Notes under the pieces: generated by a model
What the model was told of the DNA's origin: nothing
Seen by the model: only the letters and a program-made list of their open reading frames with translations
Databases searched by the model: none
Assembly (NCBI GenBank): GCA_947384955.1
Contig: CANDJC010000005.1
Location: 2,268-66,267, forward strand
Direction of reading: 5' to 3'
Origin: an uncultured Eubacterium sp.
Lineage (GTDB): Bacteria > Bacillota > Clostridia > Lachnospirales > Lachnospiraceae
Length of the DNA stretch: 64,000 nt
Part shown: in pieces, positions 23,929 to 51,374 of the stretch
How positions within the stretch are numbered: position 1 is the stretch's first letter
How the letters are laid out: each line of letters begins with the position of its first letter
Made by a program: the position numbers and the translations under genes

Positions 23929-23973
23929 GCCAGTATCTGTACAATGAATCATGTAAAAACAAGAGGTTTCAAT

Positions 23974-26900
23974 ATGGTAAAAAGTACAATTCTTATTGCG
24001 GACAGTCAGGAAAAGAACCGCCGGCTTTATAAAAGCATACTGAAGGGCGAGTATGAATTGTTAGAAGCTGATAACGAACAGAAAGCATTAGAGCTGATGC
24101 ACTGGTATGAGCGCCAGCTTGCGGCGGTGATACTGGATTTTACAGATACGGTTCATATGGATGGATATGATGTTTTGAGGCAGTGGCAGGAGGATGATGT
24201 AATCAGCAGAATTCCGGTAATTGCTGTCAGCAGAGCGGAGGATGAGCAGGCGGAAGCCGCTTGTTTTCAAAAAGGTGCATGGGATGTCATACGCATGCCG
24301 TTTGAGCCGGAAGCGCTGCGTGCGCGGGTCAGAAATGTAACCGGGCGCAGTGAGCTGCAGACGCTGGAACATATTCAGTATATTCATAAATATGATGAAC
24401 TGACAGGAATTTATAATAAAAACAGGTTTCTGCACCGGACAGAGGAAGTATTGTGCCGTTGTTTTAATGAACGGTTTGCGTTTGTCCATATGGATATTTA
24501 TCAGTTTCATTTAGTAAATCAGTTTTACGGAATCAGTGAGGCGAACCGGTTATTGCAGTATATTGCGGCTCTGATTGTGGATATGGCGGGCGGGTCTGAC
24601 AGATTTACTTACGGAAGATACCGCGCTGACGTTTTTTGTTTCTGTATGCCGTTTGAAAATGAAGCAGCTGTAATAAAAATGATGGAAAAGCTGCGGGAGG
24701 ATATTAACCAGTTCCATATCGAGCATGATTTAGTGCCGGTGTTTGGAATTTATATTATTGATGACCACAGGGAAAATATTATTACAATCAGTGACCGGGC
24801 GAATCTGGCAGCGAAAAAGTGCAAGGGCAGCTATATCAAAAATTATTCCTTTTATAATGCCTCTATGAGTGAACAGCTGGTAAAAGAGCAGAAAATTATT
24901 AATACGATGAAAAAGGCGCTTGCAAAAGAACAGTTTGTATTATATATCCAGCCGAAGTATGACCTGCATACAAACAGGATTAACGGCGGCGAGGTACTGG
25001 TGCGGTGGCTGCTGCCGGATAAGGGGATGGTGCCGCCTGGGGAATTTATACCGGTTTTTGAGCGCAATGGATTTATTGCAAAGCTGGATTATTATGTCTG
25101 GGAGCATGCCTGCAAGATAATACGGGCATGGCTGGACCAGGGCAGAAAGCCGTTTCCGGTATCCGTCAATATTTCCAGAGTCAGCCTGTATAATCCGCAG
25201 CTGTCAGAAGTTATTTATAATCTGGTCACACAGTACGGAATTGAGCCGCGGCTGATGCAGTTAGAGCTGACAGAAAGCGCTTATGCAAGCAATCCGGATG
25301 TTATCAGAAATACAATGGCCCGCCTTCAGGAATATGGATTCTGCATTTTAATGGATGATTTTGGAAGCGGGTATTCGTCATTGAATACATTAAAAGATAT
25401 TGCCGTCGATATTTTAAAATTAGATATGGATTTTTTTAAAGATTCCGATAAGCCGGGGCGCGGGGAGAATATTCTCGCTTCGGTCGTGCGCATGGCAAAA
25501 TGGCTGGAAATACCTGTGATTGCGGAGGGTGTGGAAAAAGAATCCCAGGCGGTATTCCTTCGAAGCATCGGATGCGAGTATGTTCAGGGATATTATTTTG
25601 CAAAACCGATGCCTGTGGAAGAATATGAGCATCTGGCCTTTGAAAACACGCATCTTCAGAAAGAAAGAAACGGCGGCGCCAGTCATGACGCGGATAAGCT
25701 GTGGGATGCATCGTCGCAGATGGAGCTTTTGTTCAGCAATATGCTGCAGGCGGTAGCGATTTTTGAATATACGCCGGATACAGGAGCCATTGACACCATT
25801 CGGGTGAATAATTCTTATTATGATTTATTTGGATATACAGATTTGAACCGTACAGGAAACAGTATGCCGGGAAAAATCGATGCGGGATACCGGGAAGGCG
25901 TTGCCGCAGCATTTGAAAAGGTGTCCGTTTCGAAAAATGTAGCGCGGTGCGAATTCTGCTGCAGGGGCAGAACGGACAGTAAACAGTGGATTGAGATGAA
26001 GCTGAAATACATGCGTGAGATTGGCGGCAGAAGTGTGATATTTGCTACGCTGATAGATATCACGGACCAGAAAGAGATTGAGAAGGAGCTTTATAAATAC
26101 CGGAAAGTCATCCTTTCATCTGAGAGTAAGGTAGAAACGATACTGATTGTAGATGATATCGAGATGAGCCGGAAGATGCTGCGGAATATGTTTGAAAGCG
26201 AGTATAATATACTGGAAGCATCAAACGGGGCGCAGGCGCTGGAGATTGTGAAAAAGAACAGCCGCCATATCGACCTGATTCTTCTGGATGTGATTATGCC
26301 GGTTATGGATGGAAGAGGGTTTTTAAAGCATAAACAGAACGACGCGTCTATCTCGCAGATTCCGGTTGTGATTATTACATCGGAAGATTCGCCGCAGCAG
26401 CAGATTCATGCATTGTCTATGGGGGCAAATGACTATGTAGTCAAACCGTTTATACCGGAAGTCGTAATCCGCAGGGTCTGCAATGTTTTGGAATCGCAGA
26501 AAAAAGCGAGCAGACTGCTGTTAAAAGCGGGAAGCTCCGCAAAGGAACAGAGCCGTTATCTGGCGGGACTTTATAACAGGAACGAATCCGGGCAGATTCA
26601 GGCCATGCAGAAAGCGGCCGGCCTTCAGGCGCTGCTTCTTGTATATATTCATAATTTAAAACAGTTATATGAAAATGCAGAATGCAGGACGGCAGACATG
26701 GCTGTACTGAAATTTGCCGGGCGGATACGCAGCTGTTTTCGAAAAAGTGATATACTGGCACGGTATCAGAGAAATGAATTTATTATCTTTCTCGTAGACG
26801 TGCCGTCACAGGAAACGATTCAGGAAAAGTGCGATGAACTGGTACGCGCCGGACGCGAGCTGGCTACAGCGGAAAACAGGCTGAAATATTCTGTCGGAGC

Positions 26901-27024
26901 AGTGGTGGCAGACAGGAAGGCGGAACATAATTCTTTTATGGAACTTCTGGGTTATGCAGATGAAGCGCTGGAACGGGCAAAACGTATGGGCGGGAATCAA
27001 TGGTATCTTTATGAAAGGAAATGA
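23974..27024 (+). CDS. REC-GGDEF(degenerate)-EAL-PAS-like-REC-GGDEF(degenerate); probable c-di-GMP phosphodiesterase
   Basis: EAL motifs EVLVRW, ELTES, DDFGSGYSSL, EGVE intact; GGDEF positions read RADVF and QRNEF; two receiver domains (ILIAD...VILD; ILIVDD...ILLD). Confidence 0.88.
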   Translation: MVKSTILIADSQEKNRRLYKSILKGEYELLEADNEQKALELMHWYERQLAAVILDFTDTVHMDGYDVLRQWQEDDVISRIPVIAVSRAEDEQAEAACFQKGAWDVIRMPFEPEALRARVRNVTGRSELQTLEHIQYIHKYDELTGIYNKNRFLHRTEEVLCRCFNERFAFVHMDIYQFHLVNQFYGISEANRLLQYIAALIVDMAGGSDRFTYGRYRADVFCFCMPFENEAAVIKMMEKLREDINQFHIEHDLVPVFGIYIIDDHRENIITISDRANLAAKKCKGSYIKNYSFYNASMSEQLVKEQKIINTMKKALAKEQFVLYIQPKYDLHTNRINGGEVLVRWLLPDKGMVPPGEFIPVFERNGFIAKLDYYVWEHACKIIRAWLDQGRKPFPVSVNISRVSLYNPQLSEVIYNLVTQYGIEPRLMQLELTESAYASNPDVIRNTMARLQEYGFCILMDDFGSGYSSLNTLKDIAVDILKLDMDFFKDSDKPGRGENILASVVRMAKWLEIPVIAEGVEKESQAVFLRSIGCEYVQGYYFAKPMPVEEYEHLAFENTHLQKERNGGASHDADKLWDASSQMELLFSNMLQAVAIFEYTPDTGAIDTIRVNNSYYDLFGYTDLNRTGNSMPGKIDAGYREGVAAAFEKVSVSKNVARCEFCCRGRTDSKQWIEMKLKYMREIGGRSVIFATLIDITDQKEIEKELYKYRKVILSSESKVETILIVDDIEMSRKMLRNMFESEYNILEASNGAQALEIVKKNSRHIDLILLDVIMPVMDGRGFLKHKQNDASISQIPVVIITSEDSPQQQIHALSMGANDYVVKPFIPEVVIRRVCNVLESQKKASRLLLKAGSSAKEQSRYLAGLYNRNESGQIQAMQKAAGLQALLLVYIHNLKQLYENAECRTADMAVLKFAGRIRSCFRKSDILARYQRNEFIIFLVDVPSQETIQEKCDELVRAGRELATAENRLKYSVGAVVADRKAEHNSFMELLGYADEALERAKRMGGNQWYLYERK

Positions 27025-27031
27025 ATAAATT

Positions 27032-28450
27032 ATGGCACAGAAATACAAATTAGGCGAGCTTGAATTTGAAACGGAGCAGGAGTACCGGGATGCCGCCATG
27101 GATTTAAAAAGGATTAAGGGAATTGTGGATAAATATAATCCGGAAGACCCGCAGCAGGCTCAAAAAATCCTTGCTTCCATTAAAGCACACCCGGAAACGT
27201 TCCGTTCTCCTTACGGCGTAAAGTTCAGGGAAAAGCTAGAGGCGGCCGCAGCCCGGGGGACAGCCGGCAGCAGTAAAGCGCAGGGCAGCCGGACGGTACA
27301 AAAAAACACAGAGGAGAAAAAAGGCAGAAAATTTTCCCTAAAGCCTGTCAGAGAAACAAAGCAGGACGCCGGAACTGAGAAAGAAAAATTCCAGATATTT
27401 ACACCGAGAAATTTTGCCATCGGAGTAGTCATTGTCGCCTGTGTTGTTATTTTCAGCATATTTTCGCCGCGCCTGTTTTCCTTTAACAGCAGCGGGGACA
27501 GCAACGGAGATATCAGGCGCAATATGGTGACTGCTTATGCGAAGAGCCAGGCAGAGCTGAAAACGCAGCTGTATACGTATTATTTTAATGTGGTGGGGCA
27601 GACCGAGGAAGAGGCGCAGAAGGATGCCGAAGAAGGCATCGGCCATTATGTGATGGACCTCTCAGACCGGACTGTCAGTAAAATGTCAGATTCCGAAATT
27701 AAAGATATTTACAGCCAGCTGGTAGAAGGCGGAGACATTCAGAATAACAGCTTTGTCGAGCCTTCCGAGATAACGGTGTTAAAGGATAAGCTGTTAGCGG
27801 CAGGACTTTCCGGCAACAGCGGCAACGGCGTGGAAGGGGAAACTGCAGTCGTCGCTGCGGTCAATGATATGATGGATTATCAGGAGCGGCTGTTTTACTC
27901 GCTGTCTTACAATTATTCCCTGCTGAAATATCCGAAAGAACAGGCACAGGCTTATGCGGACGAGGATATGAAATCCATGTTCGGGGAAGTTATTTATAAT
28001 TACAGCATGGCTAAGGAAGATAAGCAGGGGTATTTTGACAGTTTTGTGAAAAGAGGGCTGATTAAGGACAATCAGGTAGTACGTTTTTCCGCAGACCCGA
28101 CAGCTTACAATCTGCCGGAGCTGACACCGGTTGTCGAAATCTCGCTGCAGGGCGGCGAATCAAAGGCATACCAGTGCAGCATGATCAGCTATGCGCCGGC
28201 GGCCAGCGTATTTTATGAGATACACAAAGGGAAGGAAAAAGGGTATCTGTGTTTTCGCAACAATGGGGGAAATACCGATTATATCCCGCTCGATGATGAT
28301 ACTTCGGTAACGGCCCAGGGTGATTTTTTTATGATTACAGGTTCGGAGCTGACGACGGGACAGTGGTTTTATAACAGACAGAATATCGGTATTTTGATGA
28401 ACGGGGATTCCAGCAGCATGATTAGTTATGTGCATGATTTGAGCTATTAA
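27032..28450 (+). CDS. Hypothetical single-pass membrane protein
   Basis: 7 bp after the EAL gene; TM NFAIGVVIVACVVIFSIFS; N-terminal 69 aa align without gaps to the SrtB N-terminus (see findings). Confidence 0.75.
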   Translation: MAQKYKLGELEFETEQEYRDAAMDLKRIKGIVDKYNPEDPQQAQKILASIKAHPETFRSPYGVKFREKLEAAAARGTAGSSKAQGSRTVQKNTEEKKGRKFSLKPVRETKQDAGTEKEKFQIFTPRNFAIGVVIVACVVIFSIFSPRLFSFNSSGDSNGDIRRNMVTAYAKSQAELKTQLYTYYFNVVGQTEEEAQKDAEEGIGHYVMDLSDRTVSKMSDSEIKDIYSQLVEGGDIQNNSFVEPSEITVLKDKLLAAGLSGNSGNGVEGETAVVAAVNDMMDYQERLFYSLSYNYSLLKYPKEQAQAYADEDMKSMFGEVIYNYSMAKEDKQGYFDSFVKRGLIKDNQVVRFSADPTAYNLPELTPVVEISLQGGESKAYQCSMISYAPAASVFYEIHKGKEKGYLCFRNNGGNTDYIPLDDDTSVTAQGDFFMITGSELTTGQWFYNRQNIGILMNGDSSSMISYVHDLSY

Positions 28451-38951: not shown

Positions 38952-39868
38952 TGCCAGGCTGGCGCGGCTGTATCAGAACATCTGTCTTAGAGTGCCAGGC
39001 ATTTATGACAGTGGCAGCCGGGGAGGAAGTTCAGGAAATCCGTGTTACGAAAAAAGGAAGTGCAGTCTGTGAATCTGCGTGCTGAATGGGTTTTCTGACG
39101 GGCTGTTATGATTTTAGCTTAAACTGCATGGACGGAAATATCCAGTGTTCCGGGCCGTGCAGTTTTGTTATTGAGAGAGTTTGCCGGAATATCATTTCAT
39201 TTTAATGTCCGGCGTTTAGAATATAAAGTGAGAGGTATTTGATTACAGGCAGTTTTCCTGGTTTTTAGGAAAGAATCAGCCAGTCAGCTTCTTTCGGGAA
39301 GGTTAAAAAAATCCAGGATTAAGGTTAATAATATAAAAAAACGAGCCGATATATTATTAAACTATCTAATGGGATAAGTCTGCCTGGCGGCCTGTTTTAG
39401 GTGAACCGGAAGGCATTTCCCTGAATATAGATAATAGTGTATGCTCTTCGGGTGAAAAGAACATACATGAATGCAGCAGCTGTGGATTTTGTATCAGAAT
39501 ACGGCCTGTTTAGCCTGGGGTGTCTGCTTTGCATGACAGGATGGGAATGTGTGCGGATACGGCTGGGGAACGCTGGCGGGTGTGTAACGGCGGCGGGATT
39601 TGAATTTATGGGACGGCTGATACAAGGGCTGGCAGGCTGCAGTGCCGGGACAGGAAGGAAATCAGATTTTCATATTGGTGTGGCACACCGCATTTGGCAT
39701 GACGCCTGTGTTTGATGAGACTGGCGGTCAATGCGGCTGCTTTAGCATGGGGCAGGTGTTTTGCGAACTGCGGTGCATGGAATGTGAGATGGTTTTCCGG
39801 TTCCCGGAGGTTAGGTAGTCTGGTGTGGAAAGAAGTCTGATGTGGGAAGACGGAGAGGAAGGGAATTT

Positions 39869-42800
39869 ATGTACAAGGATGTATGGAAGAAATTTGGTGC
39901 GAAAGTATTCATTGTATTGTGCTCCATACTGTTAGTGGGGGGAGTGGCGATTGCTGCGCCGAGGCTGCTTGCGGCTGATAGGGGGGTATCGCTGGAAAAT
40001 GTTATTTTTGTGGAAGCTGGCGGCAATGAACCTTCGATAACGTCTGGAGCGGCAATTATAACGCTAAATCAAGCTGATCAGTTTTATAGTTTGGATGAAA
40101 ATGGCGGAGTGATAGCTGCGATACCGTCTAGTTTGACGTTAAAGTATCTGAATGACAACGGTAAGGAAACAACAGAAACGATTTATGAGGGCAATGATTA
40201 TATTTTTGCTGATAATACGGAGGAAGATCAAGCAAAAAAAATAGCGCCTGATGGGGTAGATATAAAAATTAAAGCGGCAAGGGGGTCGAATTATTTAGTA
40301 GATGATGCTAAAACTTGTACAATTACGTATAACATTAAAAAGTCCTCTTTAAAGAAAATTGCAACGGATGCTATTCAAACGAATAATCCGGGATATCAGA
40401 ATATTACTAGGACGGTGTTGGTTTCAAATGGAAACGAGGCAATTACTCCGAAGAATATTAAGATTAACGTTACCTATGGCTCTAAAACTTTCTTTTTGCC
40501 GGAAAGTGAGTATGATATATATGAGGCTCAGGGCAGTTCGGGTTCTTATACAGAAACGAATAATCTGAATCCGGTTCCGAATAAGTTAGGACGATATGCA
40601 GTATATATTAAATATAAAAATTTTTATCTTGGAAATAATGAAAATGTTGTTTCAGAATCTTTTGAATTTGATATAAAAAAGGATGCTTCTAATTTTACGA
40701 TTCAGGCATGGGCTGATGATAAGGGTACGCAAGAGTATATCCCAACGAATGTTTCTGTTAACCCGATGAAGGTGCAAGTGTTTGATGGAACAACGGATGT
40801 AAGTGCATTCTTTGATTTTAGTTATCCGTATGAAACAAAGGGAGATGGAACAACTGTTAAACAAGTGGTAGCAAAACCTAAGGAAACATCTAATTACATC
40901 GGAGATGTAATAAAAAGCTGGACAGTTTCAGAAAAACCATTAGATGTAAAGTTTAGGAATGGACGTCCAGATGGAACCTTGGATGTAATGGATTATGATA
41001 ATGCGGTGGATGGATATAAAGGGGTGCAGACTTACGAGATTCAGAAACAGCCGCTGACGGTCAGAGTAGGAGGAACTGACTATGCTCTGGATATTAACCG
41101 ATATGAGATTATTGGTTATACAGTTGTAAAAAGCGAGAGGGATAACACCCCTATTCCAGGCGGAACAGCCGGAATTATTATGATGGAAATACAAACGGAT
41201 TCTACGTATAACCCGGCTCCAAATACGACAGGATATTTATATTATGGAATCCGGCGAAATATTGCGAATGCAAGGTTTAAAGATAATGAGGGTGATGAAG
41301 ATGCGAACCAAATCAAATATAATGGAAATACGCATTATAGAACACCTTATATATATTTTAATGATGCTCCAGATAATGTAGAATATAAATTGGTGAAAGA
41401 TACGGACTATACTTTAACTTATTCATTGAAAAAACGCGGAGATGGTTCTGTGGTGACAGGCAGCGGAAAGGATGTTGTTACTGATGCAGGAACTGTTTCT
41501 ATGACAGTTACAGGCAAAGCTGGTACAGGTGAACCGGGTTCAAGGACAGATTTGCCGGGATATTATGGTACTTTGACGGGGGAGAGTTATCCAGATGCAT
41601 TGACATATACTATTCAGGCAAAGAGCATTAGTGAATACGATATGTCATATAATGATGTTACTTATCAGCTGGAAGATACGCCGCCAAATGTTGCTACAGC
41701 TGAGACGAATGTTTATTTTAAACCAAAGGACGAGAATCTTAGGACCATTTACCTAGCGCATATGACTCCTATAAAGGATTATTCAATAGATTATTATTTC
41801 AAACAGGCGTGCGCGGAAAGTGATTATATTGAAAATTGGCAGCAATCTGTCGAAGACGGAGATATTGAAGCTGGAGGGACATATTATGCTAAAATTACAT
41901 TTACTGGGAATCAGAAAGATTTTGTTGTAATACCATTAAAGATGGTTGCGTATGAACTTACCAATGTTAAAATCGATGTCAAAGACTGGTGTAATCAAGA
42001 AGGCGAGACTGATGGAAAGCATATATATAATGGAAAACAGCATTCATTGAATGTTGTAGTAACAGTGAAAGATGATCCGTCGAGACCGCCACTGGTGCAG
42101 GGTGACAGACCAGGAAGGGGAGATTACTGGCTGGAATATGATGCTGCTTCTGACAGAGTGAATGTTTCGGGTCAAGACCAGAACGTGTTAGTAACAATTA
42201 AATTTAAAAGCGGTGCAGAAACAACTAGAAAGTTTAAAATACATCCTCGGCAGGTTGAAACTGGAAAGGTTAAAATTACTGCGACAGGATTCCAGAATAC
42301 TTCAAGCGGCACTACGCATTTATTTAATGGCATAGGAGACGATAAAGTTCCGGCGCTGGATAAACTGGAACTTTCTTATCAGAAAGCAGGTGGTTCAACA
42401 GAAACATTAACAATGTATGAGAAGGCTGGAGTACAGATAGAAGATGGTACACTTTCGAATGATGATTATGATGTTTTGCCAGGGCTTTATGATGCAAACG
42501 GAAACAAGGTAAATCTGAATTCAATCAGTATGGATGCATCTTATTACTATGCAATTGAGCCGAAGGGGAATTTTGAAGGTAAATTTATCAGTGGGGATAA
42601 GAAGTATGTACTAGCTGGACCATTTAAATTTATCAAAAAGGACTTAGGTGCAAAAGAAATTACCTATAGAGACAAATCAACAAAGGGTGATCTTGTTATG
42701 ACCCGATGGAAATTTGATACTGAGGCTGAATATAGGCAAAAGGTAGAAGAATGGCTTAATTCGCATCTTGAAGTATGGGATGAGGATTTAAAGCAGGCAG

Positions 42801-45800
42801 TAGACCCAGGGAATTATACAATTGATTTAGACAATAGTAATAAAATAGATGAAAATGGAACAATTGTATTTAGAATTGTAGCAACACCGAATGGGTGCTA
42901 TGAGAATGAAAAAGAAAAATTGATTATTTATACTGGTGAAGATATCGCAAAGACGGAGGTGAGGGAAAAAGGCACGACAGTATACCATTCGTTTGTAAAT
43001 AGAGAAACAACATTGGATAATCCTTATAGTAAGGTGTCATCTACGGGGGATTTGTATGGCTTGAATTTTGGAGATGCGGATGACGGCAGCTATACATGTG
43101 TGTATTCTGGAGGCAGAAATTTTACAGATATAATAGGGGTCAATCAAAAATATACAGTTGGGACATTTATTGAACCTGTAAAAGACAGCAGTAATCCACA
43201 AAAACAGCAGATGGCCTCTGTTACGCTTACGGGTAAAAGTGGTTTTCATGGAACTGTAACTATTTATATCAAAGTAGAAAACCACCATTTTGACCAGACA
43301 CATTATGAAATTAGGATTCCAGATCAGATTTATAATGGTAAGGAGCAGACACCGGCATTTACTGTCTGGTATAGTGCAACTGGTAAAAGTGATGCGAATC
43401 CTAATCCAACGGACTGGGAACGTCTTCCAGATGATTGTTATGACCCGAATACTGTGGAATGGCTGAGAAACAAAAATGCAAATGAAATTTACGGAACGAA
43501 TGGCAAGTATGATACGAATGAACTTTCACAAGTAACAATACATGGTCAGTTTGGGTATGACGGTCCATTGAAGGGATGGTTTGTTATAAAGCCATTTGAT
43601 ATTACAAATGGAACGGATGGCGTAGATAATATGAACATCAATGGCATCAGATTTAATGATGGTTATAATACGCTGAGTGGTATCATGTATGTACCATACA
43701 CATATTTGGATTCAAATTCTGCTGCAGAAGGAATAACTGACACGGGTAATATTACCGTAGAAGGAGCATGGCAGACATTTAAGCTTAACTTTTATCCAGA
43801 TGGATTATCTGGAGCACCTATAGAGTTGACCAAGGATGATTATTCGTATTATTGTACTGCAGCAGCTGCGGCTAATCAATATGATAAAAATACTAAGCCG
43901 AAAAAAGTAGGTGATTGTTATGCAGTAATCGAGGGAAAGAATAATTTTACGGGAATAATTCATGCTAAATATCGGGTAAATCAGGTTAATATGAGTGAAT
44001 CCTGTTTCGTGAGATTTGTAAATAACAAAAAGTGGAATCAATTTACAGGCGAAGAAATTCTTCCTAAGATAGAAGTAATACAGAAGGCAGAAAATGGTAA
44101 GACGTATAAACTGACAGAGGGCGAAGATTATACGCTGACTTATTCGGATAATAAGAGATTTATTACGAATGATTGGAATAACCCGACAACATGCACAACA
44201 TGGATACAAATAGACGAAGCAAGCAATGGAAATTATATTGAAGGATTTACAGAGCCTTACGTTATTTATGCAGACCTTGATCCTGGTAATGGTTTAACAA
44301 CTGCTTCGAAAAATTTGAGACTATATTGGGGTACTGACCCTAAATTGAAGATTTCATATCAGAATGTAATAAGTAAGTCGTTCGAAGGACTGAACCTTTC
44401 TGTTCAGCAATGGAAGGAAGGCGGAAGTTATGGAAGCGGTAAACTGGATGTAGATTATACAACTTATCCGATGAAGATAGGAACTCCTCCGACATCAGCC
44501 GATGTAGCTGATTATACTGTTGAATTTCCAGTAGAAACGATTGGCGGTTCAGATGACAATCCAAGGACAATGATTGTAAGAGGATTGAGCGATGGTGTGT
44601 CAAAAGGTGTAATCAGGACTTCGGGGCCTAACGGGGTGACTGTTCCGGCTGTTATTTTTGACAGTCTTCAGAATGTTGATGAAGACAGACTTTGGGAGAA
44701 CAATGGCGGTTCGTCAAATATCAGTATGAGTATTACGACTGGTTCAGCAATCAGCCATGAAGATTTATCTAAGATACTGACAGTTTACTGCGGAGGAAGA
44801 CCGCTGGTATGGGGAAAAGATTATATTTTTGAAGGACAGATGAATACGACTATCGGTCAGGGCTCGATTTTAATCAAGCCGACACCGGAGGCTTTGGCAG
44901 CCGGATATCTGACTGATGATACAAAACGGATTGATTATAATCTTGTTTCAGCCATTACTGGTATGGTGCCAAATATAAAAGATGAATACATTTATAAACA
45001 TCAGAAGTTTTTCAATACGGCAACAACTGATTTTGGCTTAAGTCTGAATGGGAAAAATCTGATTAACGGTATTGATTATACGGTGACTGTTACAGATGAG
45101 AATGATACAGAAGTGACGGAACCGGAAAACTGCGGAACATATAATTATCTGATTGTTGGAATAGGAAGTTATGGTGACAGAATCACAGGAAGTTTTAGAA
45201 TCAGGCCGTATGATCTTGGAGCGGATTATGCACAGGGCAAAGTAACAATAGAGCTTAAAAATCAAGGCCGGGTTACTTTTACGGGAAGTTCTGTTCTTCC
45301 AGAGGTAGTCAGTGTAACTGTAAAACATGGCGATTATGATACACCGTATGATTTGGTACAGATTGACGATAGTAACGCCGGAGATTACGGGGTGAGGACA
45401 GCAAAGGATAGAGATGACCCTGTACATGTTAACTGGACAGATTCAGATGGCGAAATTCCAAAAGCAGCTGTGTATGGTATGAATAATTATACAGGGCAGG
45501 TGACAGCGAATTATCTTATTGAAAAGAAGAGTATTGAGGACAGTGATATTTTCATAGATGATATTTTAGGATTAAAATATCAGAATGGGATTGAGATTAA
45601 ACCTGTTCCAACGATAACCTACAGAGAGACACCGGATAAAGATGCAAAAATTCTGCTTACATTAAGCGGAGAGGAATACAGTTCTGACAAAGACAGCGAA
45701 TATGGAAGTCAGTACAGAATACACTTTACGTATCGTTACCTTGATAACGTAAAGAATGCTGGTACGAAACACATGGAAATCGTTGGTGTCGGCAATTTTA

Positions 45801-48577
45801 CCGGTAAAAGGTCAATTACTTATACAGTAGACCCGCTTCCTCTTTCTGATACAAAACTGACGTTTTTATCGGAAGAAGCCCCTGTATATGACAGCCTGCC
45901 GCAGACACCGGCATTTAAGCTCAGTTATGGAAATATTGATAATATTTTAACTGTGAGAAATGGCAAACCGGTAACGACAGAGTTTTTAAAGGCTTCGGAT
46001 GTAGAAGTTAAGTTTTACGATAATACAGACGCATCCACAGAAGAGAAAAAGGCAAGCGTAACGGTTAAGATTATAGCAGGAAGTAACTATGAAGGTGAGA
46101 TAACGAAGGAGTTTACAGTTCTTCCGGCTCCTCTTGAAGAGCATGTACGTTTCATGTATCGGCCAAAGGGTGCCAGTGCAGATGTGGACTTAAAGAGTTA
46201 TAAACTTACATTCCCGTTCATTGGCGTAGGCAGTCCGGTATACCCGAAGTATGCTCCGGCTGACGCTGAACTGGCAGAAGAAGAAATCGGCATGTACTAC
46301 AATTATCCGTCAAAAGCCAACCACGGCAAATTCCTCGTCCCGAGTGCAGACTACGGCAGCCAGGAAGACCCGGATGGAATCAACATCGAGTACAAATATG
46401 TTGAGCCGGATACAGATGATACCGATATTCGGGAAGAATATCAAAGACCGACTCCTGATTACGCAGGCAAAGTCAGAGTAACCATTACCGGTAAACGCAA
46501 TTACACAGGAAAAGCAAGTTTCTGGTACTTTATCGGCGACGATATCAGTTCCGACGCGAAAATCAGCATTTCGCCGACGACAGCGGTTTTCAACTCACAG
46601 AACCAGTATCCGACGGTTACGATATCAGGTGTTGACAAGAACAAATGTACAATCGGAAATTACCGCGGTGAAGTATTAGTAGAAAATCTGATTACCGATA
46701 AGGACTTTATCGATGCAGGCACATACTTTATCCGTGTAGAAGGCGACCCGTCTAAGGGTACGTATGCAACAAAACCGGAAACGCTTACATTTACGATTAC
46801 TCCAAGAGCGTTCTCCAACTCACTCGTCATTGACGGCTTTAAGAAGGAATATGCATACACAGGCTACGAAATCCGCCCGGTAGGCATTTCTGTTACAGAC
46901 TACATTGACAATATTAAATACAGGCTGACAGAGGAAGAGGATTATGTATTAACATACTCCAACAACCTGAATGCAGGTATCGCATACATTAACGTTAAAG
47001 GCCAGGGCAATTTCAGCGGTTCCGCATCTACGAACTTCCTGATTACAAGCTCTACCATCAGCAGCGGAGGCTGGAATGGTTCAAACAGCTTCCTGGATGA
47101 AGGCTCAGGCGAGATTTCGGGAGCAGTGCCGGTAGCGCCGAATAATGTAAAACTGACGATGGATACGAGCGATGCGATGTACTATACAGGCAAAGCGGTA
47201 TATCCGAAAGTATCGATTTCAGGCATGACGGAAAATGTGGACTACACAGTTACATTTAGTAACAATGTGGAAGTCGGCATGGGTGTAGCGACGATTAATG
47301 GTATCGGGAATAACAATGGTGTCATTACTAAGAATTTCCGGATTATTGCTCCGTTGTCGAAGTGTACCATTTCACCGATTCCTGCACAGCAGTATACGGG
47401 TTCTGCAGTAACTCCGTCGCTGACGGTAAGATGCGGCAATACGGTGCTGATGGAAGGTACGGATTATACGGTTACGTATTCGAATAATATTAACATTGGT
47501 ACGGCAACGGCAACGATTCGTGCACTGAATAATGCTAACTTTACAGGTTCAGCATCTGTAAAATTCAGCATTGGCAATGATGTAGGCGGATTTATTATCA
47601 GCGGATTTGCACCGAGCTATGCTTATACGGGCAATGCGATTACACCGGGTGTTGTTGTAGAAACAGGCAGCAGCACGCTGACGCTGGGCACGGATTACAC
47701 GGTTTCTTATTCTAACAATGTAAATGCCGGTACAGCAACGATTACAGTTACAGGTACAGGAAAATATTCCGGTACGCAGACAGCGAACTTTATTATTGAA
47801 GCAAAGAGTATCCAGAGCTGTGATACGACAGAGGTTACAGACAGAACTTATACAGGCGATGCTTATACGCCGGACATTACGGTCAGCGACGGCGGCAAGG
47901 TACTGACGAAGGGTGTAGATTATACGGTTACTTATACGAATAATACGAATCCAGGTACAGCATCGATTCTGATTCAGGGTATGAGTAATAACTATACAGG
48001 CACGAAGGTAATCAGCTTTAAGATTTCAGCAGTTGCTGTGAAGGGACTGAAATCATCTTCTGTGAAGTATAACAGCCTGAAGCTGACATGGACGAAACAG
48101 GGATATGCAGACGGTTATCAGATTTGCAATTCCAGTTCGAAAGTGGTTAAGACCGTGAAGAAGAACAGTGCAAGCATTACAGGGCTTTCGGCAGGGAAGA
48201 CTTATAAGTACAAAGTAAGGTCTTATGTCCGCAATGCAGATGGAACGAAGTCTTACGGAGCATTCTCATCGGTTCTCAGTGTTACGACAAAGCTGCGGAC
48301 ACCGACGGTTAAGGTTGTTTCGAATGCGAAGGGCCAGGCACGTATCAGCTGGTCTAAAGTATCGGGAGCATCCGGTTATGAGATTTATTATAAGAAATCT
48401 TCGAAAGCGAAGTATAAGAAACTGAAGACTGTAAATAATCCGAATGTCCGGGTATGTACCGTACGCGGCATGAAGAGCGGCGACAGGGCTTACTTCCGCA
48501 TCCGTGCATTTAGAAAGAACGGAAGCAAGAAGGTATACAGTGCGCTGAATCCGCTGAAAGTCATCACAGTGAAATAA
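39869..48577 (+). CDS. Giant secreted surface protein: many Ig-like (YTG..P...DY.v.Y.NN.n.G) repeats + two C-terminal fibronectin type III domains
   Basis: Signal peptide MYKDVWKKFGAKVFIVLCSILLVGGVAIAA; repeats such as YTGNAITPGVVV...GTDYTVSYSNNVNAGTATITVTG; Fn3 LTW...DGYQI...GKTYKYKVRSY; no sorting motif. Confidence 0.88.
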   Translation: MYKDVWKKFGAKVFIVLCSILLVGGVAIAAPRLLAADRGVSLENVIFVEAGGNEPSITSGAAIITLNQADQFYSLDENGGVIAAIPSSLTLKYLNDNGKETTETIYEGNDYIFADNTEEDQAKKIAPDGVDIKIKAARGSNYLVDDAKTCTITYNIKKSSLKKIATDAIQTNNPGYQNITRTVLVSNGNEAITPKNIKINVTYGSKTFFLPESEYDIYEAQGSSGSYTETNNLNPVPNKLGRYAVYIKYKNFYLGNNENVVSESFEFDIKKDASNFTIQAWADDKGTQEYIPTNVSVNPMKVQVFDGTTDVSAFFDFSYPYETKGDGTTVKQVVAKPKETSNYIGDVIKSWTVSEKPLDVKFRNGRPDGTLDVMDYDNAVDGYKGVQTYEIQKQPLTVRVGGTDYALDINRYEIIGYTVVKSERDNTPIPGGTAGIIMMEIQTDSTYNPAPNTTGYLYYGIRRNIANARFKDNEGDEDANQIKYNGNTHYRTPYIYFNDAPDNVEYKLVKDTDYTLTYSLKKRGDGSVVTGSGKDVVTDAGTVSMTVTGKAGTGEPGSRTDLPGYYGTLTGESYPDALTYTIQAKSISEYDMSYNDVTYQLEDTPPNVATAETNVYFKPKDENLRTIYLAHMTPIKDYSIDYYFKQACAESDYIENWQQSVEDGDIEAGGTYYAKITFTGNQKDFVVIPLKMVAYELTNVKIDVKDWCNQEGETDGKHIYNGKQHSLNVVVTVKDDPSRPPLVQGDRPGRGDYWLEYDAASDRVNVSGQDQNVLVTIKFKSGAETTRKFKIHPRQVETGKVKITATGFQNTSSGTTHLFNGIGDDKVPALDKLELSYQKAGGSTETLTMYEKAGVQIEDGTLSNDDYDVLPGLYDANGNKVNLNSISMDASYYYAIEPKGNFEGKFISGDKKYVLAGPFKFIKKDLGAKEITYRDKSTKGDLVMTRWKFDTEAEYRQKVEEWLNSHLEVWDEDLKQAVDPGNYTIDLDNSNKIDENGTIVFRIVATPNGCYENEKEKLIIYTGEDIAKTEVREKGTTVYHSFVNRETTLDNPYSKVSSTGDLYGLNFGDADDGSYTCVYSGGRNFTDIIGVNQKYTVGTFIEPVKDSSNPQKQQMASVTLTGKSGFHGTVTIYIKVENHHFDQTHYEIRIPDQIYNGKEQTPAFTVWYSATGKSDANPNPTDWERLPDDCYDPNTVEWLRNKNANEIYGTNGKYDTNELSQVTIHGQFGYDGPLKGWFVIKPFDITNGTDGVDNMNINGIRFNDGYNTLSGIMYVPYTYLDSNSAAEGITDTGNITVEGAWQTFKLNFYPDGLSGAPIELTKDDYSYYCTAAAAANQYDKNTKPKKVGDCYAVIEGKNNFTGIIHAKYRVNQVNMSESCFVRFVNNKKWNQFTGEEILPKIEVIQKAENGKTYKLTEGEDYTLTYSDNKRFITNDWNNPTTCTTWIQIDEASNGNYIEGFTEPYVIYADLDPGNGLTTASKNLRLYWGTDPKLKISYQNVISKSFEGLNLSVQQWKEGGSYGSGKLDVDYTTYPMKIGTPPTSADVADYTVEFPVETIGGSDDNPRTMIVRGLSDGVSKGVIRTSGPNGVTVPAVIFDSLQNVDEDRLWENNGGSSNISMSITTGSAISHEDLSKILTVYCGGRPLVWGKDYIFEGQMNTTIGQGSILIKPTPEALAAGYLTDDTKRIDYNLVSAITGMVPNIKDEYIYKHQKFFNTATTDFGLSLNGKNLINGIDYTVTVTDENDTEVTEPENCGTYNYLIVGIGSYGDRITGSFRIRPYDLGADYAQGKVTIELKNQGRVTFTGSSVLPEVVSVTVKHGDYDTPYDLVQIDDSNAGDYGVRTAKDRDDPVHVNWTDSDGEIPKAAVYGMNNYTGQVTANYLIEKKSIEDSDIFIDDILGLKYQNGIEIKPVPTITYRETPDKDAKILLTLSGEEYSSDKDSEYGSQYRIHFTYRYLDNVKNAGTKHMEIVGVGNFTGKRSITYTVDPLPLSDTKLTFLSEEAPVYDSLPQTPAFKLSYGNIDNILTVRNGKPVTTEFLKASDVEVKFYDNTDASTEEKKASVTVKIIAGSNYEGEITKEFTVLPAPLEEHVRFMYRPKGASADVDLKSYKLTFPFIGVGSPVYPKYAPADAELAEEEIGMYYNYPSKANHGKFLVPSADYGSQEDPDGINIEYKYVEPDTDDTDIREEYQRPTPDYAGKVRVTITGKRNYTGKASFWYFIGDDISSDAKISISPTTAVFNSQNQYPTVTISGVDKNKCTIGNYRGEVLVENLITDKDFIDAGTYFIRVEGDPSKGTYATKPETLTFTITPRAFSNSLVIDGFKKEYAYTGYEIRPVGISVTDYIDNIKYRLTEEEDYVLTYSNNLNAGIAYINVKGQGNFSGSASTNFLITSSTISSGGWNGSNSFLDEGSGEISGAVPVAPNNVKLTMDTSDAMYYTGKAVYPKVSISGMTENVDYTVTFSNNVEVGMGVATINGIGNNNGVITKNFRIIAPLSKCTISPIPAQQYTGSAVTPSLTVRCGNTVLMEGTDYTVTYSNNINIGTATATIRALNNANFTGSASVKFSIGNDVGGFIISGFAPSYAYTGNAITPGVVVETGSSTLTLGTDYTVSYSNNVNAGTATITVTGTGKYSGTQTANFIIEAKSIQSCDTTEVTDRTYTGDAYTPDITVSDGGKVLTKGVDYTVTYTNNTNPGTASILIQGMSNNYTGTKVISFKISAVAVKGLKSSSVKYNSLKLTWTKQGYADGYQICNSSSKVVKTVKKNSASITGLSAGKTYKYKVRSYVRNADGTKSYGAFSSVLSVTTKLRTPTVKVVSNAKGQARISWSKVSGASGYEIYYKKSSKAKYKKLKTVNNPNVRVCTVRGMKSGDRAYFRIRAFRKNGSKKVYSALNPLKVITVK

Positions 48578-48630: not shown

Positions 48631-49797
48631 ATGAGTGAAAAATACAAAATAGGCGATTATGAATTTAATACCTATGAAGAGTACCTTGCGGCGCAGGAGG
48701 ATGTAAAGAAAATCGATTTTATTACAAAGGAAGTCGATATTACGGATGCCGATGTCGCCGTAAGGCTCTACACTCTAATCAGGAATAAGGAAATTGTGTT
48801 CCGCAGTCAGGTGGGACTTTCCTTTTCCTGGTATCTGACAGATGTGCTGGCGCAGAATTCCCAGAATCTGCTAGAGGAAAAGCGGAAGCGGGAAGCGCAG
48901 CAGGAAAAAGGAAAGAAGTTTGGAATGGCGGGCATGCTGTGCATGCTGGCGGCTGTTCTCTGCCTGGGGTATTACGGGATTACTTTATGGCAGGAGCATT
49001 TGGAAAGCCAGGAGTATGAAAGGCTCCAGGATATGCAGAATCTGACAGGGCATATCATCCGCGATTCGGAAGAAGGCGCTGACGGTTCCGGGGAATCGGG
49101 CCAGGCAGACAGCCCTGAGACAGAACAGAACAGCAAAACGAATAACAGCAAAACAAAAAAGAAAAAAACAGACAAGAGCCAGGCAGCGGAGGAGAAAATC
49201 GACCCGGCTGACCTGACAGTCTTAAAGAAATATAAAAAACTGTATAAGCAGAATCAGGATCTGGCGGGATGGCTGTCTATCGAAGGTACGGTAATTGATT
49301 ATCCGGTTATGCAGACAGGCAGAAAGAACTCAGATTACTATCTGCATCATGATTTTGAGAAAAAAGAGAGTGACCACGGCACATTGTTTCTGGATGCAAG
49401 AAATGATTATGTGAACCGGGACACAAACCTGATTATTTACGGGCATAATATGCGGGACGGGACGATGTTCGGCGGGCTGAAGAGCTTTATGGACAAGGAG
49501 TATATGGAGCAGCACAGGGAAATTGTGTTTGACACGATATATGAAAAGGCGCGTTACAAGGTTGTCGCGGTATGTCTGTCTAAAGTAAATTATCAGGATG
49601 ACGAGGCTTTCCGGTATTATAATTTTCTGGAAGCGTCGGGGAAAGAAGAATTTAATGCTTTTCTGGCAAATATCCAGCAGCTGACGGTGTTTGACCAGAC
49701 AATTGATATTTCGTATGGGGATGAGCTGCTGACATTATCCACCTGCAACAGTTATATTCAGGACGGAAGGCTGTTCCTCATTGCGAAGAAGGAGTGA
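48631..49797 (+). CDS. srtB: Class B sortase with an extra N-terminal cytoplasmic domain
   Basis: GWLSIEGTVIDYPVMQ, IIYGHNM (His), TLSTC (Cys), GR (Arg); internal TM. Confidence 0.92.
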   Translation: MSEKYKIGDYEFNTYEEYLAAQEDVKKIDFITKEVDITDADVAVRLYTLIRNKEIVFRSQVGLSFSWYLTDVLAQNSQNLLEEKRKREAQQEKGKKFGMAGMLCMLAAVLCLGYYGITLWQEHLESQEYERLQDMQNLTGHIIRDSEEGADGSGESGQADSPETEQNSKTNNSKTKKKKTDKSQAAEEKIDPADLTVLKKYKKLYKQNQDLAGWLSIEGTVIDYPVMQTGRKNSDYYLHHDFEKKESDHGTLFLDARNDYVNRDTNLIIYGHNMRDGTMFGGLKSFMDKEYMEQHREIVFDTIYEKARYKVVAVCLSKVNYQDDEAFRYYNFLEASGKEEFNAFLANIQQLTVFDQTIDISYGDELLTLSTCNSYIQDGRLFLIAKKE

Positions 49798-49802
49798 CGC
49801 AT

Positions 49803-51374
49803 ATGATTAGTTCAATAGTAAAGCAGAAATTTGCCTTCACACTGGCAATGGCAATGGTATTATTCCTGATGCCGCGCGAAACCGTTTTTGCATCAAATAT
49901 GACGATTTCCGGCGGTGTACTGACTGCGTATAATGGCGGAGGCGGTGCAGTCACGATTCCTTCAGAAGTAACATCCATCGGGCCTGGTGCTTTTGCGGGC
50001 AAGGCAGTCAGCAGTGTCAGTATCCCTGGCAGTGTCAGGAGCATTGGCGATAATGCATTTGCAAACTGTACCGCGCTGGCAAACATTACAGTGCCTGGCA
50101 GTGTAACGAGTATGGGCAGCGGCGTATTTTCGGGCTGCAGCGGACTGAGTTCTGTCAGCATGCAGGCTTCGGTTTCTTCAATTCCTGCATCGACATTCAG
50201 CGGATGCAGGTCTTTAACAAGCATTGCGATTTCGGCAGGGGTTAGTTCCATTGGCAGCGGCGCATTTTCGGGCTGTAGCAGCTTAAGCTCTATGTCGGTA
50301 CCGTCAGGAGTCAGCAGCATTGGCGACAGCGCTTTTGCAAACTGCTCGAGTCTGTCGGCGATTTCTATTCCGGCGAGCACAAGCAGCATTGGCGGCAGTG
50401 CTTTGTCCGGCTGTTCGAATCTGACTACGATTAATGTAGCAGGCGGCAATTCGGCTTATGCATCAGATGGAGGATGCCTGTACAACGCATCGAAAACAAG
50501 ACTGATTATGGTTCCGGTCGGCAAATCGAGTGTTTCCCTGCATTCGTCTACGAAAATTATCGGCAGCGGTGCTCTGGCCGGCTGCAGCAGGGTGTCATCG
50601 CTATCTCTGCCGAGCGGGCTTACAACGATAGAAAGCGGTGCATTTTCCGGCAGCGGAATCCGTTCCATTACCATTCCGGCTTCGGTAACGTCGATTGGTT
50701 CCCAGTCGGGCTGGTCGCCGGATGTGATTACAGGTTACAGCAGCTCCGCGGCAGCTTCTTTTGCTGCTTCGGCGGGTTATACATTTTCCAGTCTGGATGG
50801 CGGTGGAAGTTCGTCAGACAGCAGCGATGATGATGAAAGTGATTCCGGTACAGCAGGAAGTACGACGGCAGATGTCAGTGATATTTCTTCCGGGGATGAT
50901 GCAGCCGATGAAGAAGAAGAACCGGATGATGATGAAACGGTAGGAAGTACAACCATAGATTTAGGAGAAGATTCGGGGAGCGGCTCAGGCTCTTCGGGCG
51001 GGAGCAGTTCGGGTTTTTCCGGCAGCGGTTCCGGTACAGGCAGCAGCTCAGGAGGCAGTACAGCTTCTTCCGGCGGCGGTTCCGGTGCAGGCAGCTCAGC
51101 TGGCAGTTCCGGTACGGGCAGCAGCTCGGGAGGCAGTACAGCAGCTTCTGGCAGCAGCACTGCGTCTGTGAGCAGTTCAGGAGGCAGTTCTTCGGCATCT
51201 TCCGGCAGCGGCAGTTCTTCCGGGGTTTATGCGGGAGCATCTTCCGGCAGCCATACGCTGGATGAAACGCCGAAAACAGGAGACGGCTCGATTGATCCCA
51301 GACTGTTTCTGATTATCGGGCTTGTGTTTGTAGGATGCGGGCTGATACTGGCTGGGAAAAAACAGAGAGTTTAG
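49803..51374 (+). CDS. BspA-type (LRR_5) surface protein with Gly/Ser stalk and TPKTG sorting signal
   Basis: Signal peptide; 23-aa repeats SIG..AF.gC.sL.si.ip.gv; acidic + G/S tract; DETPKTGD-hydrophobic-KKQRV tail; RBS overlaps the srtB end. Confidence 0.9.
   Translation: MISSIVKQKFAFTLAMAMVLFLMPRETVFASNMTISGGVLTAYNGGGGAVTIPSEVTSIGPGAFAGKAVSSVSIPGSVRSIGDNAFANCTALANITVPGSVTSMGSGVFSGCSGLSSVSMQASVSSIPASTFSGCRSLTSIAISAGVSSIGSGAFSGCSSLSSMSVPSGVSSIGDSAFANCSSLSAISIPASTSSIGGSALSGCSNLTTINVAGGNSAYASDGGCLYNASKTRLIMVPVGKSSVSLHSSTKIIGSGALAGCSRVSSLSLPSGLTTIESGAFSGSGIRSITIPASVTSIGSQSGWSPDVITGYSSSAAASFAASAGYTFSSLDGGGSSSDSSDDDESDSGTAGSTTADVSDISSGDDAADEEEEPDDDETVGSTTIDLGEDSGSGSGSSGGSSSGFSGSGSGTGSSSGGSTASSGGGSGAGSSAGSSGTGSSSGGSTAASGSSTASVSSSGGSSSASSGSGSSSGVYAGASSGSHTLDETPKTGDGSIDPRLFLIIGLVFVGCGLILAGKKQRV

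Follow-up and report, generated by a model that had tools for sequence, protein, structure and literature searches.

A conserved domain of an unnamed family at the predicted cytoplasmic N-terminus of a class B sortase and other membrane proteins of Lachnospiraceae

Two intact open reading frames in the window, by which we mean the whole 64,000-nucleotide stretch of DNA that was analysed, encode membrane proteins that begin with the same kind of segment. ORF A (27032..28450, + strand) encodes 472 amino acids, and ORF B (48631..49797, + strand) encodes a class B sortase of 388 amino acids. The ORF A locus is laid out as follows, with amino acid (aa) positions in brackets.

23944..27024, + strand: gene for a REC-GGDEF-EAL-REC-GGDEF protein, recognised by domain matches, 8 nt upstream of ORF A; an optional neighbour that lies outside the conserved context of the domain
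27032..27256, + strand: N-terminal, putatively cytoplasmic domain of ORF A (aa 1-75), recognised by similarity and by the family profile, and predicted by AF2 as a beta-hairpin with three helices
27257..27403, + strand: disordered, Lys/Glu-rich, putatively cytoplasmic linker of ORF A (aa 76-124), with pLDDT <50 for aa 79-124 and 30% identity among orthologues
27404..27469, + strand: single predicted membrane helix of ORF A (about aa 125-146), with a hydropathy of 2.6 and an AF2 helix at 125-143
27470..28450, + strand: predicted outside part of ORF A, which AF2 resolves into a helical region (aa 159-340) and a small beta domain (aa 367-466)

The full ORF A protein has no match in Pfam or NCBIfam. 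Its full-length AF2 model, built on 30 orthologues, has an overall pLDDT of 77 and shows five parts, namely the N-terminal domain, the disordered linker, the membrane helix, the outer helical region and the small beta domain, and it found no fold match in the PDB with E below 0.001. The small beta domain gave weak FABP-like fold matches only. Among ORF A orthologues, mean identity is 0.75 in the domain versus 0.30 in the linker, and the conserved gene order is GDSL esterase, ORF A and then a thiamine transporter on the opposite strand. By hydropathy, neither ORF A nor ORF B has a signal-peptide-like segment at its N-terminus; the maximum over the first 30 windows of ORF A is -0.75, and its first hydrophobic helix comes about 120 residues further on. 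The start of the ORF A orthologues, M..KKYKLG, resembles the KxYKxGKxW-type signal peptide of Gram-positive bacteria (PF19258), a candidate that we rejected after finding no Pfam match at E <= 1 and a motif without an adjacent hydrophobic core.

The ORF B locus lies further along the same strand.

39842..48577, + strand: surface protein of 2911 aa, encoded upstream of the sortase; conserved as a neighbour and without a C-terminal sorting signal
48631..48846, + strand: N-terminal, putatively cytoplasmic domain of the sortase (aa 1-72), recognised by similarity and by the family profile, with 75% mean identity across 37 orthologues
48847..48921, + strand: basic, putatively cytoplasmic linker of the sortase (aa 73-97), with 7 Lys/Arg among the 15 residues that precede the helix and 49% identity among orthologues
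48922..48990, + strand: single predicted membrane helix of the sortase (about aa 98-120), from hydropathy
48991..49245, + strand: charged, poorly conserved outside linker of the sortase (aa 121-205), from its sequence, with 35% identity among orthologues
49246..49797, + strand: class B sortase catalytic domain (aa 206-388), matched by PF04203 and TIGR03064, with His272, TLSTC (Cys372) and Arg380
49794..51374, + strand: BspA-type leucine-rich repeat (LRR) protein (LRR_5), the likely sortase substrate, whose start shares 4 nt with the sortase stop

A match to TIGR03064 (164.7 bits against a cut-off of 153.75, E = 2.1e-48), which covers aa 167-382 only, identifies ORF B as a class B sortase, and the protein also matches the Pfam Sortase family PF04203 (E = 4.4e-11, aa 215-386). 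The motifs YGHNM at aa 270, LSTC at aa 369 and DGRLF at aa 378 supply the catalytic His, Cys372 and Arg380, residues that were assigned by reading motifs and not by structural superposition. The sole hydrophobic window of the protein spans aa 99-117, with seven Lys/Arg before the helix and one after it. A giant surface protein is encoded directly upstream of the sortase in 37 of 38 sortase-type loci, down to a sortase identity of 41%; at the remaining locus the contig begins about 500 bp before the sortase gene. On the downstream side, 34 of the 38 loci have a BspA-like LRR gene. The copy in the window ends with TPKTG, a hydrophobic stretch and then KKQRV. Across the 34 loci the C-terminal motif of the LRR protein is D-x-TP-x-T-[GA], in which x is mostly Lys, with Gln, Arg, Thr and Ser as alternatives; a hydrophobic segment and a basic tail come after it. 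This sorting signal is of the (S/P)PxTG type known for Clostridioides difficile SrtB, and the LRR protein is likely the substrate of the ORF B sortase. No sorting signal was read at the C-terminus of the 2911-aa protein.

The segment shared by the two proteins was first noticed in an initial annotation, which reported 24 identities over 69 residues together with the pattern of shared residues. Ungapped realignment of residues 1-69 of each protein (translated from 27032-27238 and 48631-48837) returned exactly that count (24/69) and that pattern. The BLOSUM62 score of the two segments is 102, against -58 +/- 17 for shuffled residues (z = 9.4); none of 200,000 shuffles attained either the score or the identity count, and the highest identity among them was 16. 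BLASTP of the full proteins gave 30% identity over 103 residues (1-103 versus 1-99, E = 8e-11) and no further significant similarity beyond this N-terminal match. Each protein has one hydrophobic helix, and the earlier description of an N-terminal unit placed before a single membrane helix, with otherwise unrelated remainders, is borne out. That the similarity reflects chance, low complexity or a recent local duplication, and has no meaning, can be dismissed for practical purposes. Besides the shuffles, it is contradicted by profile matches down to E = 1e-33, by the retention of each copy among its own orthologues in many species and by a confidently predicted fold, and we found nothing in its favour. 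The N-terminal segment of ORF A and ORF B is a genuine, autonomous domain of about 72 residues.

Single sequences gave a narrow picture of how far this domain extends, since word-based searches with each N-terminus recovered orthologues only (27 for ORF A and 95 for the sortase). We therefore relied on a family profile, made from 21 N-termini aligned from the ORF A and sortase orthologue groups and searched against 1.84 billion cluster representatives. It matched 298 representatives at E <= 1e-3 and 96 at E <= 1e-10, with a best E-value of 1.8e-33. Neither the two segments on their own nor the N-terminal domain within the full proteins matched Pfam or NCBIfam at E <= 1. When 81 diverse domain sequences were compared with Pfam and NCBIfam, no family recurred at E <= 5, the most frequent one being matched by three of them. 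The only name that any source gives to a carrier of the domain is "class B sortase", and a full-text search of the literature brought up no account of class B sortases with a cytoplasmic domain. The segment thus belongs to an unnamed domain family that is absent from the libraries searched.

The domain sits almost always at the very beginning of its carriers. Among the best 150 of the 298 matches, it starts within the first five residues in 132, and a detectable membrane helix lies behind it in 90. In the 150 matches listed, the linker between domain and helix is poorly conserved, has a median length of 45 residues and contains much Lys and Glu, and the net charge around the helix is +2.3 before it and +0.2 after it. 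From the established topology of sortases, we infer that the N-terminal domain is on the cytoplasmic side, because the catalytic domain must be outside and the protein has only one membrane helix, and because the flanks of the helix follow the positive-inside rule.

What follows the domain is diverse. The parts behind it fall into 27 BLAST sequence groups among 79 representatives, the largest being 29 sortases (ORF B included), 11 proteins with 5-7 helices, seven of the ORF A type and five small three-helix proteins; the other 23 groups are smaller, and 18 of them are single proteins. When 55 long members were compared with Pfam, a sortase domain was found in 21, and GGDEF, BspA LRR_5, DUF6273 and FKBP with Trigger_C in one each; the other long members had no family match. 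Most carriers have no known function assigned. The initial annotation had proposed both a profile search and a list of the fused C-terminal parts, and with 298 representatives and 27 groups the similarity is highly significant and maps to no known Pfam family. Its broader idea, that of a modular cytoplasmic tag for surface-assembly proteins, stands in part: the unit is discrete, modular, unnamed and, by topology, probably cytoplasmic, but its carriers are not only surface-assembly proteins.

AF2 modelling of the domain alone, from an alignment of 81 sequences, gave a pLDDT of 84.9, with strands at residues 5-7 and 10-12 and helices at 15-34, 40-52 and 60-74. The predicted fold is therefore a beta-hairpin followed by a three-helix bundle, and the same fold was recovered inside the full-length ORF A model. 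Structural comparison, which had also been suggested at the outset, found no relative in the PDB or BFVD: the best Foldseek E-values were 3.0 and 1.3, respectively, and a profile sequence search against the PDB gave best E-values of 0.04 and 0.15. With no structural relatives in these two databases, the model offers no functional hint from its fold. The conserved positions are Tyr5, Gly8, Phe12, Thr/Ser14, Glu17, Tyr18, Ala21, Asp/Glu24, Ile28 and Asp/Asn36 in the first half, and Pro40, Ala43, Phe57, Ser/Thr59, the invariant Gly62, Phe65 and Leu69 in the second. No Cys, His or Arg is conserved in the alignment of 81 sequences. The conserved residues appear to form a hydrophobic core, turn glycines and likely helix caps, and they are not of the type expected for catalysis or ligand binding. 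Such conservation looks like the signature of a fold, and perhaps of a binding surface, rather than that of an enzyme or a nucleotide pocket.

How strictly the domain is maintained can be judged within the sortase itself, where regional identity to the window protein was measured for 37 orthologues. Mean identity is 0.75 in the N-terminal domain, 0.49 in the inner linker, 0.53 in the membrane helix, 0.35 in the outer linker and 0.70 in the catalytic domain; in the 19 most distant orthologues it is 0.62 in the domain versus 0.57 in the catalytic domain. With 0.75 set against 0.70, the domain matches the active part of the enzyme in strictness of conservation, and in sortases purifying selection acts as strongly on it as on the catalytic domain.

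With a broad profile, the domain was found in 81 of the 201 genera sampled from the family of the window's organism, mostly in one to three copies each, and in four copies in the window's own genome. A phylum-wide sample of 401 genomes had matches in three, all of them Lachnospiraceae, and the domain was not found in the other families sampled; an order-wide sample of 251 genomes had matches in 15 Lachnospiraceae genomes and one weak partial match elsewhere. In essence, the family is restricted to Lachnospiraceae. The genomes with related loci are from the mouse gut, the human gut and the rumen and carry the names Eubacterium sp., Eubacterium plexicaudatum ASF492, E. oxidoreducens and Lachnospiraceae bacterium; a class B sortase of Pseudobutyrivibrio is a carrier as well. 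In the NCBI taxonomy E. plexicaudatum stands under Eubacteriaceae, and the remaining matches bear names that point to Lachnospiraceae. Class B sortases as such are present in 179 of the 201 Lachnospiraceae genera, and since most of their reading frames are 250-300 aa long, the domain-bearing form is a minority variant.

Searches of the window's genome with single proteins or with a narrow profile returned no copies beyond ORF A and ORF B, and it was the broad profile that added two further carriers. One is a second class B sortase, 690 aa long, with three degenerate copies of the domain repeated at its N-terminus, and the other is a 196-aa protein in which the domain is followed by just one helix and a short acidic tail. 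Repetition within one protein was also seen in P0205, which has two matched domain stretches. The short type, of about 190 residues, is the commonest form of the family and is present in 76 of the 81 positive genera. It occurs in 33 of the 38 genera with a long carrier versus 43 of the 163 without one, five genera have long carriers and no short form, and the short gene lies directly upstream of, and on the same strand as, an OmpR-type response regulator gene in 19 of 21 genera sampled, with a WalK/PhoR-like histidine kinase after the regulator in 15 of the 21; these co-occurrence and neighbourhood counts are confounded by phylogeny. Beyond the kinase there is usually a gene for a lipoprotein-like protein of about 250 aa and a CheW-REC gene. 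Were the carriers to share a partner, our guess would fall on the short protein, or else on its neighbours, the OmpR-type regulator and the WalK-like kinase.

We suggest, tentatively and as the reading that we favour, that the domain is a cytoplasmic protein-protein docking module which, on a flexible leash, positions or gates its carriers, sortase B first among them, through a partner at the inner face of the membrane. We lean towards docking because the conserved residues are those of a fold core, its turns and its caps, with none of the catalytic or ligand type. The domain would tether outward-facing enzymes and membrane proteins, by means of the leash, to a shared partner at the inner membrane face, and tethering would set the place or the time at which a carrier acts. 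In the window, the sortase would anchor the downstream TPKTG-bearing BspA-like protein, and its inner domain would position or gate the sortase. The partners could differ between types of carrier, as the ORF A and sortase copies are only about 35% identical and have signatures of their own.

A role in folding, membrane insertion or stability would also account for a conserved N-terminal fold. The domain might be a passive cap without any partner, which folds first and then fixes the N-in/C-out orientation, aids insertion or shields the protein from proteolysis. This would suit a domain that is made first, in view of its start within residue 5 in 132 of the best 150 matches, that nearly always has a membrane helix behind it and whose conserved positions serve the fold and not a site. 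We nevertheless regard it as unlikely, since it leaves unexplained both an identity at the level of the catalytic domain over long divergence and the stand-alone form beside a two-component system in 19 of 21 genera, and typical class B sortases of the same family, at 250-300 aa and in 179 of 201 genera, insert without any such domain. Self-association overlaps with the docking reading: copies of the domain on different carriers would bind each other or the stand-alone form, gather the sortase and other carriers into a single membrane patch and report to the adjacent kinase and regulator. The co-occurrence of short form and long carriers (33 of 38 versus 43 of 163 genera) speaks for it, as do the repeated copies within single proteins, namely the three degenerate ones of the second sortase and the two of P0205. 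However, paralogous domains from the same genome are only about 35% identical and show no sign of concerted evolution, and five genera have long carriers without the short form, so that we consider self-association quite improbable. Docking, which we continue to prefer, has a bolder version to which we assign only a slim chance. The domain would then be a Lachnospiraceae-specific address tag that wires class B sortases, together with a membrane foldase and membrane proteins of dozens of other kinds, to one conserved envelope two-component system by way of the stand-alone paralogue encoded next to it, with the anchoring of surface proteins positioned or gated from inside and perhaps feeding back on the kinase.

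The initial annotation had gone further and seen a hint of c-di-GMP-linked control of surface display, which would make the domain an element that responds to c-di-GMP and ties display to its level. The GGDEF/EAL gene 8 nt upstream of ORF A invites this idea, 11 of the 20 orthologous loci have such a gene between esterase and ORF A, and one of the 55 long members, P0147, is fused to a GGDEF domain. However, in five of the 20 loci, including that of E. plexicaudatum ASF492, the GGDEF/EAL gene is missing between intact flanks, and neither the 38 sortase loci nor the 21 short-form loci have a GGDEF/EAL reading frame within about 4-5 kb. Neither does the domain look like a receptor: the alignment of 81 sequences shows no conserved arginine motif of the RxxxR or RxxD type and no conserved arginine column (maximum frequency 0.35), Arg19 and Arg27 of ORF A are Leu and Lys in the sortase copy, and there is no match to PilZ or any other receptor family. 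No c-di-GMP riboswitch was found in the window either, and a permissive threshold brought none to light in the leader of the adhesin operon. Known c-di-GMP receptors (PilZ, MshEN, GIL) resemble the domain in being small and modular and in that they can be fused to membrane proteins of surface structures; they differ from it in that it lacks a match to their families, the arginine motif and a consistent linkage to GGDEF/EAL genes. Control by c-di-GMP is thus highly improbable, and the GGDEF/EAL gene appears to be an optional neighbour.

Set beside known systems, the most direct comparison for ORF B is with canonical class B sortases (TIGR03064), such as SrtB of Staphylococcus aureus and that of C. 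difficile, the latter with substrates that carry (S/P)PxTG. ORF B has their His, TLSTC and Arg, scores above the cut-off, has a single N-terminal helix and shares an operon with a likely substrate that bears a sorting signal at its C-terminus (here TPKTG). In contrast, ORF B has 388 aa, as against 235 positions in the TIGR03064 model and 250-300 aa in most SrtB proteins of Lachnospiraceae; its 388 aa include a 72-residue domain, predicted to be folded and cytoplasmic, and a 25-residue linker before the helix. Sortase A of Enterococcus faecalis is reportedly localised through a short cationic cytoplasmic segment. There, a cytoplasmic N-terminal part influences the position of the enzyme in the membrane, a role of the sort suggested here, but it comprises a few charged residues, unlike the widely shared and predicted folded domain found here. 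For the stand-alone form, the nearest parallels are the accessory membrane proteins of envelope two-component systems, such as LiaF with LiaRS, and YycH and YycI with WalRK, in Bacillus. The likeness lies in a protein of about 190 residues with one helix, encoded beside an OmpR-type regulator and a WalK/PhoR-like kinase; unlike those proteins, the stand-alone form has no sequence or family match to them, and its conserved part is probably cytoplasmic and is also fused to sortases and other proteins.

Sortases are usually drawn as outward-facing enzymes on a bare membrane helix and, to our knowledge, how cells choose where and when they act is largely an open question. What is new here is that a sizeable group of class B sortases carries a conserved, predicted folded cytoplasmic domain from an unnamed family. 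The domain defines, at a minimum, a new and well-delimited family, which has 298 representative clusters and merits a name and a database model. Lachnospiraceae are an abundant family of gut and rumen bacteria, and in their sortases a domain that is kept like the active site, and that recurs on many other membrane proteins and on a small protein linked to a two-component system, points to a control of surface display from inside the cell, for which the 72-residue domain would provide a concrete handle for testing.

The class B sortase gene whose product carries the N-terminal cytoplasmic domain (ORF B, window 48631-49797) is flanked by two genes:

Window 39842-48577, gene for a 2911-aa surface protein, upstream of the sortase gene
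Window 49794-51374, gene for a BspA-type LRR protein with TPKTG, a hydrophobic stretch and KKQRV at its C-terminus

The start of the LRR protein gene and the stop of the sortase gene share 4 nt (GTGA). The signal of the LRR protein, D-x-TP-x-T-[GA], is kept in 34 related loci, with x mostly Lys and otherwise Gln, Arg, Thr or Ser. The gene for the 2911-aa protein lies ahead of the sortase gene in 37 of 38 related loci; in the remaining one the contig itself starts approximately 500 bp before the sortase. We found no C-terminal sorting signal in the 2911-aa protein, and the sole hydrophobic segment noted in it is N-terminal. Therefore, this protein may not be a substrate of the sortase.

ORF A (window 27032-28450), the single-helix membrane protein that shares the domain, has a different setting:

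Window 23944-27024, REC-GGDEF-EAL-REC-GGDEF gene, between a GDSL esterase gene and ORF A
Window 27470-28450, outside part of ORF A, made up of a helical region and a small beta domain

The REC-GGDEF-EAL-REC-GGDEF gene is a presence/absence polymorphism, being found in 11 of the 20 orthologous ORF A loci; where it occurs, the gene and ORF A are tightly coupled, with gaps of 0-8 nt or overlaps. The outside part of ORF A is well conserved, at approximately 71% identity between orthologues, and neither a family match nor a fold match was found for it.

Elsewhere in the same genome, the domain recurs in two further genes:

Contig C102, locus L065, 4147-6219, second class B sortase, 690 aa
Contig C75, locus L064, 5273-5863, minus strand, stand-alone domain gene

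The N-terminus of the second sortase contains three degenerate copies of the domain (the F-x-S-x-x-G-x-x-F-x-x-x-L unit), its outer linker is very long and rich in Gly, Ser and Glu, and its gene adjoins that of a 668-aa secreted repeat protein. Class B sortase domains were also seen within ORFs of approximately 1,650 aa in Lachnospiraceae genomes G015, G049 and G096, with three such ORFs in G096; these are giant sortase fusions.

The stand-alone form, of approximately 190 aa, comprises the domain, one membrane helix and an acidic tail. Across its neighborhoods in 21 Lachnospiraceae genera (L064 and, from other genera, L066-L085), an OmpR-type regulator gene lies directly downstream in 19 and a WalK/PhoR-like kinase gene comes next in 15, usually followed by a lipoprotein-like gene and a CheW-REC gene; smpB and RNase R genes lie just 5' of the stand-alone form in six loci. 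In two representatives from the profile search (P0176 and P0197), the domain shares a polypeptide with four membrane helices and with an FKBP plus trigger-factor C-terminal module, an architecture that looks like a membrane-bound foldase bearing the domain as a cytoplasmic tag.
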